Origin: Escherichia phage JEP6
Reading direction: 5' to 3' (one strand)
Length of the DNA stretch: 64,000 nucleotides
Sequence record: MT764206.1
Below the pieces are notes generated by a model, which saw only the letters and a program-made list of their open reading frames with translations, made no database searches and had not been told where the DNA came from. Position 1 is the first letter of the stretch, and every line of letters begins with the position of its first letter. The position numbers and the translations under genes were made by a program. Of this stretch, positions 35,830 through 47,091 are shown piece by piece.

Positions 35830-35979
35830 TTACTGCATGACTGTGATAACTATCATGATAACACGTTGAATTCCGAACGCAAGAAGACCTCCTGCTACAG
35901 CTGGAACAACACCTAAACCCGCCAGTAAAATGCCACCGGATACTAATGCAGCGCTTGTAATACCTATAAATGGACTCAT
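35830..35979 (-). CDS. small hydrophobic membrane protein
   Basis: 49-aa Gly/Ala/Val-rich ORF; ATG overlaps gp52 stop; terminator follows. Confidence 0.4.
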   Translation of the reverse strand: MSPFIGITSAALVSGGILLAGLGVVPAVAGGLLAFGIQRVIMIVITVMQ

Positions 35980-37304
35980 TTGATTTCCTCTAAATCTTTG
36001 GTGTATTCTGTAACTACATCAGTAGTTTTCCAATATTCATTTTCTTCTTTCTTAGCTTTAGCTTCTTCAGCAAGTTTCTTTGCTTCATCAGAAGTCATAT
36101 GAAAAATATTCATTCCAACTAGTTTATCAACATAAGAAGAATACATATCAATTTTAGAAAGTTCTTCGGTCAGTTCTTTGCGAGTTTTACCCTGCACAAC
36201 AATTTCACCTGAAATTACTTTCTTAATGAAATGTGCCTTGGCAAAGGCTAAACGAAATGCTGATTCAGTTTCTTTGATTTTGTTATCAATTCGTTTTTGG
36301 ACATAAGTTTTACGAACTTCAACGAAGTCTTTGATTAAATCAACTACGTTATCGTAAACTTGCAGCTTTCCTTTCTCATTAATAACGGTAATATTTTGGG
36401 AACGACGCTCAATCAACCCAAAGTCTTTCATAATTTTTGCATGGCGTTCTTCTTCATTATCGCTCAAAGAGTATTCTTTTCGGAATTTAACTTTGAATCC
36501 AAAACCATGCTCACCACAAGCATCATCCCATGTAATGAAGCCTTTATCTTCAAGTGGGTCTAAGATTTTACTCACATAAGTTTCACGATCATACTTATAC
36601 GGAATCTCAGTGATATGCATTTGAGTTCGTGAAGTAAACTTATATGTTCCACGAATTTCATATTGCCCATCAATTTCAACGACTTCACCGCGAAATTCTG
36701 GGAATTCTACCTTCGGTTTAGTTACTTTCTTTCCTTGAAGAGCTTGCAGTACAGCTTTCTTGACAGAAGAAACACTATGAGGAAGAATGTAAGTTGCATA
36801 ACCAGTTGCAATACCGGAAACACCATTAAGAAGAACAGTAGGAATAATAGGCAAATAGAAAGCAGGAGGAATGTGTTCTTTATCTTGATGTACCGGAGCA
36901 TATTCAGTATCTTTATATACGTTATAGAAATTTTTACTTACACGAGCAAAAATATAACGACTTGCTGCTGCTTTTTGAACGGTACGAGAACCAAAGTTTC
37001 CTTGACCATCTAACAGAGGAAAGTTATTATTCCAAGTGTTAGCCATCAAAGCACCTGCATCTTGTGCAGAGTTTTCACCATGATGATATCCAAGGTCCGC
37101 TACACCACCTGCAATAGAAGCGAGTTTGTGAAACTTATCTTTATTTCCTCGTGCCAAATCAAGAGCTCGAGCAATAACAAATCGTTGAACTGGCTTAAAT
37201 CCATCAATCATATTTGGAATAGCACGATTTTCAACCGTGTACATAGCATAAGCCAATGCTTCATTATCAATGATACTTTTTAAATCGCGATTATTCAGTT
37301 GCAT
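35976..37304 (-). CDS. 52: DNA topoisomerase II medium subunit gp52 (GyrA-like)
   Basis: 442 aa. Confidence 0.9.
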   Translation of the reverse strand: MQLNNRDLKSIIDNEALAYAMYTVENRAIPNMIDGFKPVQRFVIARALDLARGNKDKFHKLASIAGGVADLGYHHGENSAQDAGALMANTWNNNFPLLDGQGNFGSRTVQKAAASRYIFARVSKNFYNVYKDTEYAPVHQDKEHIPPAFYLPIIPTVLLNGVSGIATGYATYILPHSVSSVKKAVLQALQGKKVTKPKVEFPEFRGEVVEIDGQYEIRGTYKFTSRTQMHITEIPYKYDRETYVSKILDPLEDKGFITWDDACGEHGFGFKVKFRKEYSLSDNEEERHAKIMKDFGLIERRSQNITVINEKGKLQVYDNVVDLIKDFVEVRKTYVQKRIDNKIKETESAFRLAFAKAHFIKKVISGEIVVQGKTRKELTEELSKIDMYSSYVDKLVGMNIFHMTSDEAKKLAEEAKAKKEENEYWKTTDVVTEYTKDLEEIK

Positions 37305-41455: not shown

Positions 41456-43633
41456 TTAGGCCGCAAGGGCCTTCATAGTTTTAGCGATTTGGGAAACTTC
41501 ATCATCACTTAAAGAGTTGCGATAACCGATGAAGTCGGAAACAATACGGAATTTCTTGGTAAACTCAGCAACCATTTTATCACTGTTTTTTGAAGCATTA
41601 TTTGATAATACATCAAAAAGATTAGTTACTGTCCAGATGTCATGACCGATGGTATCTTTTCCACCGTTGAAATATACACCCTGTAATGAACTAACCATAT
41701 TAGCGAGTCGTGTATATTCTTCAGAAACTTCATCTACACTGAAGTACTTCATCATAAAATCTAGCTCAGGATACTTGATAATTTTATCAATATATCGTTT
41801 AGCTGAACTTGAATAACCTACATACTTATCATAATCTACATCATCAAAAGCATCTACATATAAATCACGCAGAGTTTCAAAAATACATTGGCACTGACCG
41901 AGTTCTTTTACCTTTTTCTGTAAAAGCGGACGAATAACATAAAATTCATTAATGCCAATAAGATTAGCCATACGAATCAAAATATTCATAGATGGATGAC
42001 AAAGCGATGTAGTACCATCCATAGAGAAAATATCAGAACGATGCATATACGCTACATAACCAGTAATTTCATCTGCTTCTGACGTAAGTGTAAACAGTTC
42101 CTCTTTTTCCCAGCGCCCATCTTTAATTTCAAACTTAAATGCTGTAGCAGCTTTAGGACGAGGAGCTTTACTTTTTACTGCCTTTGGAATATAACTTTTA
42201 ACTAAAGCTTCAATTTCTGACAAATAATGAATGTTAACTTCATCATTTTCAAACATTGCCATAATATCAGGGAGTAAATCAATCTGTGATTCTACTTCCG
42301 GATTAATAAACAGAAGACGTTCGTTATGATGAATATTCAGAGTGTTATTAAATTCACTATCATCTAATGCACGTGCTAATCCACGAACAATATTAACACG
42401 ATTTTTAATATTATCAATAACGACATTAATTTTTGTTGTATTAATACCAAACAGACGATAACTTGATGCGACGGCTGAAGTTTCATGACTTTGCTTAATG
42501 CGTTTCAGTCGAGGGTCAAGATTTACTTCATACACAACCCCTGCATTGCATAACTTACTGTCAGGTTCAAACATGCTCTGCATCTTTTTATATGACAGAT
42601 TTTTAGTCGTGAATTTGACTGAATTACTAATCATATAATCTCGAGCAGAATACCCCATCTTCATCAATTCACGGTATGTGTGACGAGGAGATGTAGATTC
42701 TTTAAATCGTTTTACATCTTCATTAAATGCTTTCTCACTAAGCTCTTTAACACGCTCAATAATATTTTTACGGGTACGATCATCTAGTGAAAGAGCTTCA
42801 CGTGATGGAGCAATATCAAGTGAACCCATTGGAAACTTAATGTAATTCACTTCATTGCGAATGCTTAACCAGTTACGGTCTCTAATAACACCATCGATAG
42901 GATAAACGATACCGCCGTAGATAGCATACAATCCACCACGATCTGGCCAGTATCTTTCTGGATTTACGCCGTAATAATCATCAAAATCCGGAAAATAATC
43001 AATTTCGCGGTCAAGACCATTAATGATAGCCAAATCTTTGAATGGTCGCATGATATAAGAAACTTCATAAGCAAAGTTTCTAAAGTCTTTTTCTTCAACT
43101 GGAACTACGATTTCAATACCAGTTTTATCGTCTGGACCCATTTCTTTCACGAATGTAGGTTTAATTTGTGGACCATCGCCATCCATGTAAGCTACATAAC
43201 CACGAATTTCACCTTTATGATACGAAGTAATACTAAATGTATCAGTATAACTAAACGGAGATTTAGAACCTAAACCAAATCCGCCAATGAAATCGTTAGA
43301 TTCAGCTTTAGATGAACTGAAGTATGAATTATACAACCCAGGAGAATTATCATCACCCTGAATATCAAAATCACTCATACCCGGACCAAAATCTCGACAA
43401 ACAAATCGTGGGTCTAAACGTCCTGGAACTTGTATGATAAATTTTTCAGGATTTCCATTGAGAGCATGGGCATCAATCATGTTAGTAATCAATTCACGGA
43501 CTACTGCGCGAATCTTGTTTGTATACAAATCAGATGATAGAATTTTAAATACTTTAGGAGATGCTGTGATGCTAAATGCTTTTGATTTAGAACCATTACC
43601 AAGAATTGTTTCTTTTTCAGTGGTGATAATCAT
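41456..43633 (-). CDS. rIIA: rIIA protein
   Basis: 725 aa. Confidence 0.9.
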
Positions 43634-43643
43634 AATTTCCTCA

Positions 43644-43847
43644 TTAATTCATATTGCGTTTAATAACTTCAGCAACTTCTAGTAGTTCATCTTTAGTTGC
43701 GGTGTCGGATTGAATTTTATCTCTAATATCCTTAAAGCGGTTTTTAAATTCTTCGGCTTCTCCCATATCGAAAAAGCGTTGAATGATTCTATATTCTCGA
43801 TGAACTGCTTTATCAAAAAGTTCTAAATTTACTCTATATGATTTCAT
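43644..43847 (-). CDS. hypothetical protein (rIIA.1-like)
   Basis: 67-aa ORF. Confidence 0.5.
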
Positions 43848-43869
43848 TTCAATATCCTCATTTGCCCAA

Positions 43870-43904
43870 TTAATTATACCACATCCTTGTGGTAAAGTAA
43901 ACTA
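43870..43904 (-). promoter_or_regulatory. early promoter for rIIA region, overlapping 3' end of gene 60
   Basis: GTTTAC ... TGGTATAATTA. Confidence 0.5.
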
Positions 43905-44246
43905 CTGGCTCATCCATTCTTTACGAAGGTCAGCATTATCTCCCATGAGCATTTCAAAAAGCTCTTTCCAGTTCTCAGGAAGTTTAACAACATCATAAAC
44001 TGGGTTCTGAATCATTTCACGGTATTCAGATTTTTCCAAAGAGCCAAGTCCCTTAATATAACGGATGCTATGTTTAGGTAGAGCATCTTTGGCACTCTCA
44101 TATTCAGCGACTGTATAAAACCATTCTTGTTTTTTACCGACCTGAGCGATGATTACAGGAGTTTTGACAAAGCGAATTCTTCCTTGTTCAAACAGTTCTG
44201 GCCAATTACTAAAAAATCCGAGCAGAGAAGGATAAATAGAACCTAA
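43902..44246 (-). CDS. 60: topoisomerase II small subunit gp60, segment after translational bypass (codons 47-160)
   Basis: Frame resumes with TTA GGT (LGSIYPSL...) after landing GGA; ends ...KEWMSQ TAG. Confidence 0.85.
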   Translation of the reverse strand, partial: LGSIYPSLLGFFSNWPELFEQGRIRFVKTPVIIAQVGKKQEWFYTVAEYESAKDALPKHSIRYIKGLGSLEKSEYREMIQNPVYDVVKLPENWKELFEMLMGDNADLRKEWMSQ

Positions 44247-44296
44247 TCCAATAATCTCTTAATTATGAGGTATTTCAATGGATAGCCCGAAGGCTA
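44247..44296 (-). other. 60: 50-nt translational bypass coding gap of gene 60
   Basis: Take-off GGA 44297-44299, TAG 44294-44296, hairpin CCTTCGGGCTATCC at 44281-44293, landing GGA 44247-44249. Confidence 0.85.
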
Positions 44297-44434
44297 TCCA
44301 TCGTGATCTGCGTCTGTCATAATAGCGACATTCGCATAGTTCATTGAAGAGGATTTAATAGAACGACGAACATTGTTCTGCGATTTATATTTTTTCATAT
44401 CAATGCTAGAAGAATCAATTTTTACAAATTTCAT
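44297..44434 (-). CDS. 60: gp60 segment before bypass (codons 1-46)
   Basis: MKFVKIDSSS...TDADHDG ending at take-off Gly46. Confidence 0.85.
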
Positions 44435-45233
44435 TATACACCTCGTAGAACTTTTCATCAGGAATCCAGCCGCGTTTAAATTCATTAAATGCTCGGCCGA
44501 ATAATTTTGAATTCACAGTTATATTATTAACTGATTTCCATTTAGCAACTCCCGTTCGTTTATAATGATCGGGGTCATATTTCGTGACGTACCATTCATA
44601 TAAATTTGGTATTAATTTTACAGCCTCTGGATTTGTCGCTGATTTATTATACCATGGTTTCGCTTTTTCAAGTTCAGCTGCTTTTGCAGTAGCAGCAACA
44701 GTATTTCCAATACCAACTAATTTTTCAGCTTTAATGCGTGGATCATTAACATGAAGACGAAAAACTTCGCCTTTTTCATTTTTAAAGCATGTCATGCCTT
44801 TAATTCCAGGAAGCTTAACACCTTTATTAACACCGCACCATTCCTTTGGGTTAAATGATCCTTTAATTAATAAGGCGCATTTACCCGATTTAATACTTCT
44901 CATTAAAACTTTATCTTTCATAAAGTTTTTTGACCATTCAGATACTGCTCTTTGATGGTAAATTCTAGCAATTTCATATAATTTACTAGAACGTAAATAT
45001 TTTTCAGTGTTTAACATTCTATTCATCGCATATGCCATTTCACGATTACGATGAATTTTATATAGTAGAAAATGTGCTAAAAAGTGTTCACGAAAAGTCA
45101 GTTTCACCAAATTTTCTTTATCATCAGAACCTCCCATTGATCTTGGAAGGATATGGTGAATTTCACCCTTAAATTTAGAAACGCGGGTTTTACCCCGCAC
45201 TATTAAGTCATTATAGATTTTTTCGTAATTCAC
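44415..45233 (-). CDS. mobA: HNH homing endonuclease, Mob family
   Basis: 272 aa; HHILPRSMGGSDDKENLV motif shared with mobE; wedged between genes 39 and 60 with short overlaps. Confidence 0.75.
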   Translation of the reverse strand: MNYEKIYNDLIVRGKTRVSKFKGEIHHILPRSMGGSDDKENLVKLTFREHFLAHFLLYKIHRNREMAYAMNRMLNTEKYLRSSKLYEIARIYHQRAVSEWSKNFMKDKVLMRSIKSGKCALLIKGSFNPKEWCGVNKGVKLPGIKGMTCFKNEKGEVFRLHVNDPRIKAEKLVGIGNTVAATAKAAELEKAKPWYNKSATNPEAVKLIPNLYEWYVTKYDPDHYKRTGVAKWKSVNNITVNSKLFGRAFNEFKRGWIPDEKFYEVYNEICKN

Positions 45234-46761
45234 CTACTGTTATCCATTTACCATTAATCTGTACTTCATCATTTTCATTTACAATAATTGTATCACCATT
45301 TAGTTCGAGAGTAAACCACTCACCGTCTTCTTTTTCTTCAAACGCCTTTTCACCAAGAACTAATCCAGTGATTGCGCAAATATCAAACAGTTCTTTGTTT
45401 TTAAGCATGTCAGCATATGACATACCCCAGCTATTAAGAACTTTACCGCGCAATGGATAACCACCATGAAGTTCTTTATCGCGAACATCAATAAGATATC
45501 CGATAGCAGAATCACCCTCAGTCAAGAAAAGAGTAGTGTCAGCATCTTTACCGCAAAGATTCGCTTTAATATGTTTATGAACCTTAGCTTTAGAAGCCTT
45601 TTTAGCTGCTTTAGTTTCTGCTGCTTTTTCTGCCGCCAATTTACGAGCCAAAGCAGCTTCAATAATTGGCATTAAAATTGCTTCATTATTTAAAATAGCA
45701 CGTGAAATCTTTTTAGCATCAAGCTGAATATGACTACGGATTTCACCAAATGGAGAAGTCAAACGCTCTTTAGTTTGAGAATCAAATCGCATGTTTTTCA
45801 TATCACGAACAAACATAACGATAGTCAAACATTCTTTGACACGTGCTTTAGTTACATCAATTTTGAACTTACGTTTGATTTGTGGAATAAGGTCTTCACA
45901 AATATCATCCATAACACAGTCAATGTGATGACCACCATTCTTAGTATGAATGTTATTGACGTACGTTAATTGACGAAAACCATCCGGTGAACGACCAACC
46001 GCAATAGAACAGTTTTCTTGTTCTTGAACGATGGCGTGTTCATCATATTGGCGTGCATATTTCTTAAAATTACCCTGAACCTTTTTACCATTAAAGGTAA
46101 ATTGAATATCAGGATAAACTACTGCAAGTGTCTGGAGACGATCTAGTGTAATGTCAAGATAAACTTGGGACAGCTCATTAGTTTCAAATGACATAAAATC
46201 AGGAATGAAAGTAACACGAGTTCCTTTCCATTTTCCAGGAATAGTTTCCCATGATTTATTTTCCATGCCATTTGAACAACGAACTACAATATTATTTTGA
46301 CCATCACCAGTTTCACCGACAAACATCACAGAAAAAATGTTTGTCAAACTAGAACCAACACCATTCATACCGCCGGTGACGCGTTCTTTATCATCACCGA
46401 AGTTACCACCTGCTTTTGGAATAGTCCACGCAGCAACAGGACCAGGAATTTCTTCACCGGTAGGTGTTTTAACCATCGCTTGTGGAATACCACGACCGTT
46501 ATCTTCAACTGTTACCTGATTATTTTTAATGGTAACATTAATTTTATTTGCGAATTTAAACTTAGTACGAATACCTTCATCTACTGAGTTATCGATAATT
46601 TCATCAATAAGCTTAACAAGACCAGGTACATACTGAACACTTTCCCATTTACCAAACAGAAAGCGCTCATGCATTTCATTAGCAGAAGAGCCAATGTACA
46701 TGCCGCTACGCTTTTTGATATGTTCAATATCGCTCAGAATTTTAATTTCATTCTTAATCAT
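45211..46761 (-). CDS. 39: topoisomerase II large subunit gp39 (GyrB-like ATPase)
   Basis: 516 aa from second Met. Confidence 0.9.
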   Translation of the reverse strand: MIKNEIKILSDIEHIKKRSGMYIGSSANEMHERFLFGKWESVQYVPGLVKLIDEIIDNSVDEGIRTKFKFANKINVTIKNNQVTVEDNGRGIPQAMVKTPTGEEIPGPVAAWTIPKAGGNFGDDKERVTGGMNGVGSSLTNIFSVMFVGETGDGQNNIVVRCSNGMENKSWETIPGKWKGTRVTFIPDFMSFETNELSQVYLDITLDRLQTLAVVYPDIQFTFNGKKVQGNFKKYARQYDEHAIVQEQENCSIAVGRSPDGFRQLTYVNNIHTKNGGHHIDCVMDDICEDLIPQIKRKFKIDVTKARVKECLTIVMFVRDMKNMRFDSQTKERLTSPFGEIRSHIQLDAKKISRAILNNEAILMPIIEAALARKLAAEKAAETKAAKKASKAKVHKHIKANLCGKDADTTLFLTEGDSAIGYLIDVRDKELHGGYPLRGKVLNSWGMSYADMLKNKELFDICAITGLVLGEKAFEEKEDGEWFTLELNGDTIIVNENDEVQINGKWITVGELRKNL

Positions 46762-46830
46762 CACTTATCCTCGTTTGGTTTCGGGAATATTATACTCCGG
46801 TAATCATAAAGCTAAAGGCCCGAAGGCCTT

Positions 46831-47091
46831 TTATTTAAAACGAATAGTCGAATCCTTGAAGAATAGTCCAGAACATACTGTTCCTTCTACTTTCTGCCCA
46901 GTAGGTCCAACAGCACGAAATCCAGTGTGTTGGAAATCATTTTCAGAGCAACCGAACCAGTTATATCCAGTGATTTCAATATTAGTAAAACCACTTGAAG
47001 ACAAAACTTTGGTTGCATTATCAGCATCAGTACATCCTACTAAAGACACTGCTAATACTAATGCTGCGATAGAACGATTAACATATTTCAT
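46831..47091 (-). CDS. putative lipoprotein
   Basis: Signal peptide with LVGC lipobox. Confidence 0.5.
   Translation of the reverse strand: MKYVNRSIAALVLAVSLVGCTDADNATKVLSSSGFTNIEITGYNWFGCSENDFQHTGFRAVGPTGQKVEGTVCSGLFFKDSTIRFK

Follow-up and report, generated by a model that had tools for sequence, protein, structure and literature searches.

A T4-type programmed translational bypass predicted in gene 60 of Escherichia phage JEP6

Bypassing in gene 60 of phage T4 is the classic exception to collinear decoding, and its recognition from raw sequence shows that a reader can detect recoding signals. In the T4 reference record, gene 60 is annotated as a two-piece joined CDS, and a misc_feature, 'non-coding translational bypass region', marks the 50 nt lying between the pieces; the records of RB55 and HY01 also carry the two-piece CDS, and that of HY01 marks the bypass region as well. 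The MobA element to which such cassettes belong measures about 1.1 kb, and 9 extra nt past the cassette are typical of its clade 1 (Manning and Atkins, bioRxiv 10.1101/2022.08.31.505936). According to literature relayed by the same authors, the 50-nt insert keeps MobA from cleaving the very element that encodes it. The sequence features that they associate with bypassing include a mini-Shine-Dalgarno (GAG, GGA, GGG or AGG) located 5-7 nt 5' of the landing codon in AU-rich surroundings, and an N-terminal extension in which Y16 is invariant and Q19, V22, R24, Y33 and T40 are conserved (Manning and Atkins, bioRxiv 10.1101/2022.08.31.505936).

Here, we describe the corresponding locus of Escherichia phage JEP6. 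Judged from its sequence, this locus is very probably a programmed translational bypass in the gene 60 of a T4-like phage (Tequatrovirus), acquired by way of a MobA element. The anatomy of the locus, its orthology with T4 gene 60 and the collinearity of the joined product with uninterrupted homologues are demonstrated. From the near-identity to T4 (11 of 533 nt differ), we infer that the bypass functions in JEP6, and likewise its efficiency. No feature of the sequence argues against this reading.

Layout and collinearity of the split gene

Coordinates are positions in the window, that is the whole 64,000-nt stretch of JEP6 DNA (MT764206.1) that was analysed; gene 60, mobA, gene 39 and the signals described below all lie on its minus strand. 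Gene 60, which encodes the topoisomerase II small subunit gp60, occupies 43902..44434 and comprises two coding segments and a 50-nt gap, for a joined product of 160 aa. It starts at ATG 44434-44432, with a Shine-Dalgarno GAGG (44441..44444) 6 nt 5' of the ATG, and ends with the stop codon 43904-43902. Segment 1 (44297..44434) spans codons 1-46 (MKFVKIDSSSIDMKKYKSQNNVRRSIKSSSMNYANVAIMTDADHDG), whereas segment 2 (43902..44246) spans codons 47-160 and the stop (LGSIYPSL...KEWMSQ*), its resumption codon being TTA 44246 and its reading TTA GGT TCT onward. The preliminary description of the locus had reported a frame that stops at GAT GGA TAG after Gly46, resumes 47 nt later after a second GGA and runs to the expected gp60 C-terminus. 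All of this holds, with the take-off GGA at 44297..44299, the UAG directly 3' of it at 44294..44296 and the landing GGA at 44247..44249, since a gap of 50 nt counted with the UAG equals 47 nt counted after the stop codon. In a mechanically produced list of open reading frames, the frame of segment 1 extends over 44294-44485 (-) as a 63-aa ORF from an ATG at 44485 inside mobA; the start annotated in T4 corresponds to ATG 44434, which has the GAGG Shine-Dalgarno.

A megablast search with 43880-44500 (621 nt) against 50,697 phage records matched 497 Tequatrovirus-type records, 41 of which cover the full query, among them ELT1 (99.0% identity) and T4 (97.9%). Alignment with the annotated T4 gene 60, the check initially proposed, gives 522 identical nt out of 533, that is 11 differences, and the gene order rIIA, rIIA.1, gene 60, mobA, gene 39 is that of T4. 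Given that the best phage matches to the JEP6 window reach only about 96-97% identity over 24 kb, JEP6 is a different mosaic T4-like phage and not T4. The locus had been introduced as the classic T4 hop, a label that stands as far as orthology with T4 gene 60 is concerned; its bearer is a relative of T4, from which it differs at two positions of the gap and two residues of the nascent peptide. Its designation as known biology is borne out by the annotations of T4, RB55 and HY01, and by the clade described by Manning and Atkins.

The joined product is best appreciated by comparison with phages lacking the insert. Related records without it, 456 in number, match the query only from 10 nt 3' of the landing codon, and carry one long annotated 'DNA topoisomerase II large subunit'. 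In ECO4 and RB18, this subunit is a single ORF of 605 aa. Residues 1-473 of the ECO4 protein are identical to JEP6 gp39 at 472 of 473 positions, and residues 472-605 match the joined gp60 at 128 of 134, without a gap over ...NIAIMTDADHDG|LGSIYPSLLGFF...; within this stretch, segment 2 is identical to the ECO4 C-terminus at all 114 positions. The DNA alignment likewise reveals a clean 50-nt insertion, with GAT GGT TTA GGA in insert-free phages facing GAT GGA [50 nt] TTA GGT in JEP6. The translation originally proposed for the junction, ...DADHDG|LGSIYPSL..., is thus correct and collinear with uninterrupted homologues; the insert interrupts the Toprim motif DxDxDG|LGS at its invariant Asp45/Gly46. 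Moreover, gp39 extends to position 504 of the PHROG large-subunit profile, of which the joined gp60 covers positions 502-638. The structures of T4 topoisomerase II (gp39-gp60) related to PDB 8yo3, like 8yo3 itself, hold the joined 160 residues contiguously. In PDB 5np6, chain C corresponds to the nascent chain of 46 residues on a 70S ribosome poised for take-off. JEP6 gp60 differs from these sequences only by V11I and L18S, both within segment 1.

Could the two segments instead be separate polypeptides, a 46-residue peptide ending at the UAG and a downstream protein made from its own internal start? Automated annotation has called separate downstream ORFs in many GenBank records, and two AUU codons that belong to the landing frame closely follow the GAG of the gap. 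Separate downstream initiation had been named at the outset as one outcome that would refute the bypass. The landing frame opens just 12 nt before the landing GGA and holds no ATG, GTG or TTG until 69 codons past the resume codon. In the absence of a canonical start over these 69 codons, separate initiation of segment 2 is rejected. The protein encoded by the same 69 codons is fully conserved relative to uninterrupted homologues, variation falling mainly on third positions, and a split into two polypeptides would cut the Toprim motif DxDxDG|LGS. Across 24 sequences, the variable sites of segment 2 distribute as 8/2/31 over the three codon positions and 26 of the 31 variable sites within the 69 codons are synonymous, a signal that recombination from insert-free phages, in which this region is conventionally translated, could partly have imported and which is therefore weaker evidence for translation in the cassette-bearing genomes. 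In T4, the sole product detected spans the junction (Manning and Atkins; bioRxiv 10.1101/2024.12.09.627546), and the chain in PDB 8yo3 is contiguous. Altogether, we consider the production of two polypeptides highly improbable. Frameshifting by +1 or -1 and readthrough were also considered and rejected, as each of the three frames meets a stop within the gap (by gene position, 139 and 190 in frame 0, 158 and 170 in frame 1, 174-176 in the landing frame), so that no single frameshift, chain of +1 or -1 shifts or readthrough can join the segments.

The expectation that ORF callers would report only the N-terminal fragment proved accurate for the mechanical ORF list and for databases alike. Mis-annotation affects most GenBank records of relatives that carry the cassette: gene callers fragment gene 60 into a 141-nt piece and arbitrary downstream ORFs, with starts at locus positions 1276, 1306 or 1462. 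This error has propagated into the PHROG family phrog_19082 (45 positions), which represents solely the truncated 46-codon fragment.

Signals for take-off and landing

Every sequence element listed in the literature as needed for bypassing occurs, as far as the letters can tell, in JEP6. The codons for take-off and for landing match, both being GGA and thus readable by the same tRNA, and the untranslated coding gap from the UAG through the landing GGA (44247..44296) corresponds to the same 50 nt that are marked in the T4 record. The take-off codon and the UAG are predicted to lie in the 5' arm of a stem-loop (44276..44303) made of a 12-bp stem and a UUCG tetraloop (GGAUAGCC-UUCG-GGCUAUCC, with CC-UUCG-GG at its tip). 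This hairpin has a predicted stability of -20.2 kcal/mol (z = -7.85), and none of 200 shuffled sequences was equally stable. The stem-loop of the preliminary description is therefore present, although CCTTCGGGCTATCC, the sequence quoted for it as following the stop, represents only its 3' two-thirds, the take-off codon being within the 5' arm. Downstream, the 26 nt from the hairpin to the landing codon are 81% A+U, and a GAG located 6 nt 5' of the landing GGA (44256..44258) would act as the mini-Shine-Dalgarno, a role taken from Manning and Atkins.

A scan of IMG/VR with the 19-mer core of the hairpin, GGATAGCCTTCGGGCTATC, returned four contigs (L024:11375-11393, L025:13159-13177, L026:6759-6777 and L027:2545-2563), each with an unrelated intergenic UUCG hairpin and no gene 60 context; these matches are consequently uninformative on cassette alleles. 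In these four unrelated viral contigs, the 19-mer is the core of a longer intergenic hairpin, ACAGGGATAGCC-TTCG-GGCTATCTCCTGT, which looks like a recurrent stable-hairpin module and not like a bypass.

Upstream of the take-off site, codons 14-30 (44345..44395) encode the putative nascent-peptide bypass signal KKYKSQNNVRRSIKSSS (KKYKLQNNVRRSIKSSS in T4), of the form KKYK...SSS, within segment 1. The role of the KKYK motif has been reported (bioRxiv 10.1101/2024.12.09.627546), as have those of Y16, R24 and S28 (PMC5462505). JEP6 retains Y16, Q19, V22, R24, S28, Y33, M39, T40, H44 and D45, which are the residues implicated by cryo-EM or mutagenesis (PMC5462505; Manning and Atkins, bioRxiv 10.1101/2022.08.31.505936). 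V11 and L18, the two residues substituted in JEP6, are mentioned neither in PMC5462505 nor by Manning and Atkins, and are absent from the contact or mutation-sensitive positions given there.

Two additional structures are predicted, one on either side of the gap. First, a 5' stem-loop (44309..44336) ends 9 nt before the take-off codon, at a position that agrees with the published one (bioRxiv 10.1101/2024.12.09.627546); its sequence and its predicted fold of -10.1 kcal/mol are the same in JEP6 and T4. Second, the region of the predicted 3' stem-loop, considered a barrier to forward slippage (44179..44230), folds less stably in JEP6 than in T4 (-11.0 versus -15.2 kcal/mol). This region of JEP6 carries the allele of the cassette-less ECO4: three synonymous sites, 44195, 44187 and 44180 (-), have the ECO4 and not the T4 letter, for a predicted structure 4 kcal/mol weaker. 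These letters suggest that recombination took place downstream of the cassette. According to the published view, the 3' structure is host-derived and poorly conserved, with which the weaker prediction for JEP6 fits.

The precise boundaries of the insert would also be expected if the 50 nt were removed from the RNA, as a small intron or by other processing, and translation were continuous. T4-type phages do have self-splicing group I introns in other genes. Yet a search of 43600-46900 against Rfam (E<=1) yielded no intron or RNA family, the insert included, but only one sub-threshold match on the opposite strand, and 50 nt is far below the size of a group I or group II intron. In the classic T4 work of Huang et al. 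in 1988, the 50 nt were reportedly found in the mRNA. Furthermore, bypassing is reproduced when gene 60 mRNA is translated in vitro by purified components (PMC5462505, among others). Removal at the RNA level is thus extremely unlikely.

Bypassing, on the other hand, would proceed in JEP6 along the steps worked out by experiments on T4. Ribosomes would read codons 1-46 while the KKYK...SSS nascent peptide grips the exit tunnel, slowing and hyper-rotating the ribosome. Once GGA (Gly46) occupies the P site and UAG the A site, the upper part of the UUCG hairpin would form in the A site, and the peptidyl-tRNA-Gly would unpair from the take-off GGA and be kept on the ribosome. The ribosome would then slide over about 50 nt, driven by EF-G pseudotranslocation and by the refolding of upstream structures, with about 1% of the ribosomes dropping off per nt. 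Finally, the anti-Shine-Dalgarno would pair with the GAG and the tRNA would re-pair at the second GGA, after which decoding would restart at UUA, giving one 160-aa protein in which the Toprim motif DxDxDG|LGS is completed.

Natural variation of the cassette

Natural variation was compared over 22 cassette-bearing sequences. Among these, only positions 17 and 20 of the gap, which both belong to the take-off stem (3' arm), carry substitutions, and these define three alleles: U..A (the T4 type), C..A and C..U. JEP6 has the last of these, with C at 44280 (U in T4) and U at 44277 (A in T4), as do ELT1, HY01, PEC04 and pSe_SNUABM_01. The peptide allele I11/S18 is found in JEP6, HY01, HY03, PEC04 and pSe_SNUABM_01. 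The N-terminal peptide and the gap of JEP6 are both identical to those of HY01, and the same combination occurs in PEC04 and pSe_SNUABM_01. Each gap substitution keeps or adds a pair, U17C converting G-U into G-C and A20U a G.A mismatch into G-U. Accordingly, the predicted stability of the stem increases over the alleles U..A, C..A and C..U from -14.7 through -17.0 to -20.2 kcal/mol, and its length from 10 to 12 bp. According to published work, base pairs low in the stem favour bypassing, a 'delta-bottom' mutant having lowered efficiency, so that the gap substitutions are compatible with function.

The same differences could be taken as signs of decay, L18S, V11I, the longer take-off stem and the weaker 3' stem-loop having disabled bypassing in what is now a pseudogene, with host gyrase as a substitute for the phage enzyme. 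Position 18 does lie within the nascent-peptide signal. In addition, T4 topoisomerase is conditionally dispensable, mutants being conditionally viable with a DNA-delay phenotype, so that the viability of an isolate is no strict proof of a working bypass. Nevertheless, neither segment of JEP6 gene 60 has accumulated a frameshift, a stop or an indel, the residues implicated by cryo-EM and mutagenesis, from Y16 to D45, are all retained, the peptide allele and the gap allele each recur in four other isolates, and both gap substitutions strengthen the very stem whose lower pairing favours bypassing. A decaying gene 60 is consequently very unlikely, and an intact bypass gene remains the preferred reading.

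Salmonella phage GRNsp7 (ON720975.1) presents a 51-nt gap, with an extra T between the GAG and the landing GGA and hence a spacing of 7 nt. Unless it results from a sequencing error, this is a natural demonstration that the GGA, and not the length of the gap, determines landing.

Natural alleles thus have take-off stems and 3' stem-loops of differing strength, and are ready-made variants for work on efficiency. We put forward, tentatively and with more doubt than confidence, that the HY01-type allele (12-bp stem, Ser18, no second UAG in the gap, weaker predicted 3' stem-loop) may differ measurably from that of laboratory T4 in the efficiency of bypassing or in its dependence on temperature. 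If so, natural populations would carry quantitative 'tuning' variants of the hop.

The MobA element and related systems

Upstream of gene 60 lies mobA (44415..45233), an ORF of 272 aa that encodes an intact HNH homing endonuclease; its Pfam HNH match is below the gathering cut-off, and it matches the homing endonuclease family phrog_655 with E = 2.5e-57. The gene overlaps the start of gene 60 by 20 nt and the end of gene 39 by 23 nt, out of frame in both cases. Gene 39 (45211..46761), identified by alignment and PHROG, consists of the N-terminal part of the topoisomerase II large subunit and a tail encoded by the element. A GTG at 46764 (46761-46764, -) would lengthen its ORF by one codon; the start annotated in T4 corresponds to ATG 46761, for 516 aa. 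The single Rfam match mentioned above, TeloSII_ncR30 at 45273-45409 (+), lies opposite gene 39 and was judged to be due to chance (24.4 bits against a gathering threshold of 86, E = 0.011). The third topoisomerase subunit, gp52, is encoded at 35976-37304.

Breakpoints relative to ECO4 (net +1042 nt) place the inserted MobA mobile element at approximately 44238..45346, where it comprises the C-terminal extension of gp39, mobA, the N-terminal extension of gp60, the bypass cassette and 9 nt, in agreement with the published MobA element of about 1.1 kb (Manning and Atkins). Cassette-bearing and insert-free sequences show synonymous differences that cluster on both sides of the gap, at 44300-44343 and 44238-44246 (-): before it, ACA GAC GCA GAT CAC GAT GGA faces ACC GAT GCT GAC CAT GAT GGT in insert-free phages, and after it, TTA GGT TCT faces TTA GGA AGC. 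These clusters are homR, the replacement region that the element encodes around the nick site reported for MobA. The locus would have originated when a mobile element centred on MobA entered the gene for the topoisomerase II large subunit, an insertion that would have divided it between gene 39 and gene 60, the latter being left with a 50-nt insert that contains a stop. As mobA is intact in JEP6, the element may still be an active homing cassette. The gene is intact in 21 of the 22 cassette-bearing sequences (JEP6 and 20 of the 21 others), and broken in the T4 reference into fragments annotated 'mobA' and '60.1'.

Scientifically, the JEP6 locus brings nothing new, being one more genome with a described allele of a described mobile cassette, and its place among known systems can be stated in some detail. 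T4 gene 60 is orthologous, has the same neighbours, and shares the GGA/GGA codons, the UAG, the UUCG hairpin, the GAG at 6 nt, the 50-nt gap and an identical 5' stem-loop sequence. T4 differs by a 10-bp take-off stem of -14.7 kcal/mol where JEP6 has 12 bp and -20.2 kcal/mol, by a second in-frame UAG in the gap that is lost in JEP6, by V11 and L18 in the nascent peptide where JEP6 has I11 and S18, by three synonymous changes that weaken the predicted 3' stem-loop in JEP6, and by its broken mobA, which is intact in JEP6. A very different system is found in the mitochondria of Magnusiomyces capitatus, where ribosomes likewise skip 'byp' inserts of 27-55 nt lying between matching codons for take-off and landing. 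In these inserts, the codon that follows take-off is decoded slowly and the 3' part is rich in AU; they differ by their unrelated sequences and host, the lack of Shine-Dalgarno use and their many copies per genome, and are not homologous. The clade 1 MobA-element cassettes of E. coli T4-like phages (Manning and Atkins), exemplified by HY01, have the same architecture as JEP6, including the homologous replacement region, and we find no material difference from them, JEP6 being another mosaic Tequatrovirus genome with a known allele. The JEP6 cassette is a member of this T4 gene 60/MobA-element clade 1, which has already been described (Manning and Atkins, bioRxiv 2022).
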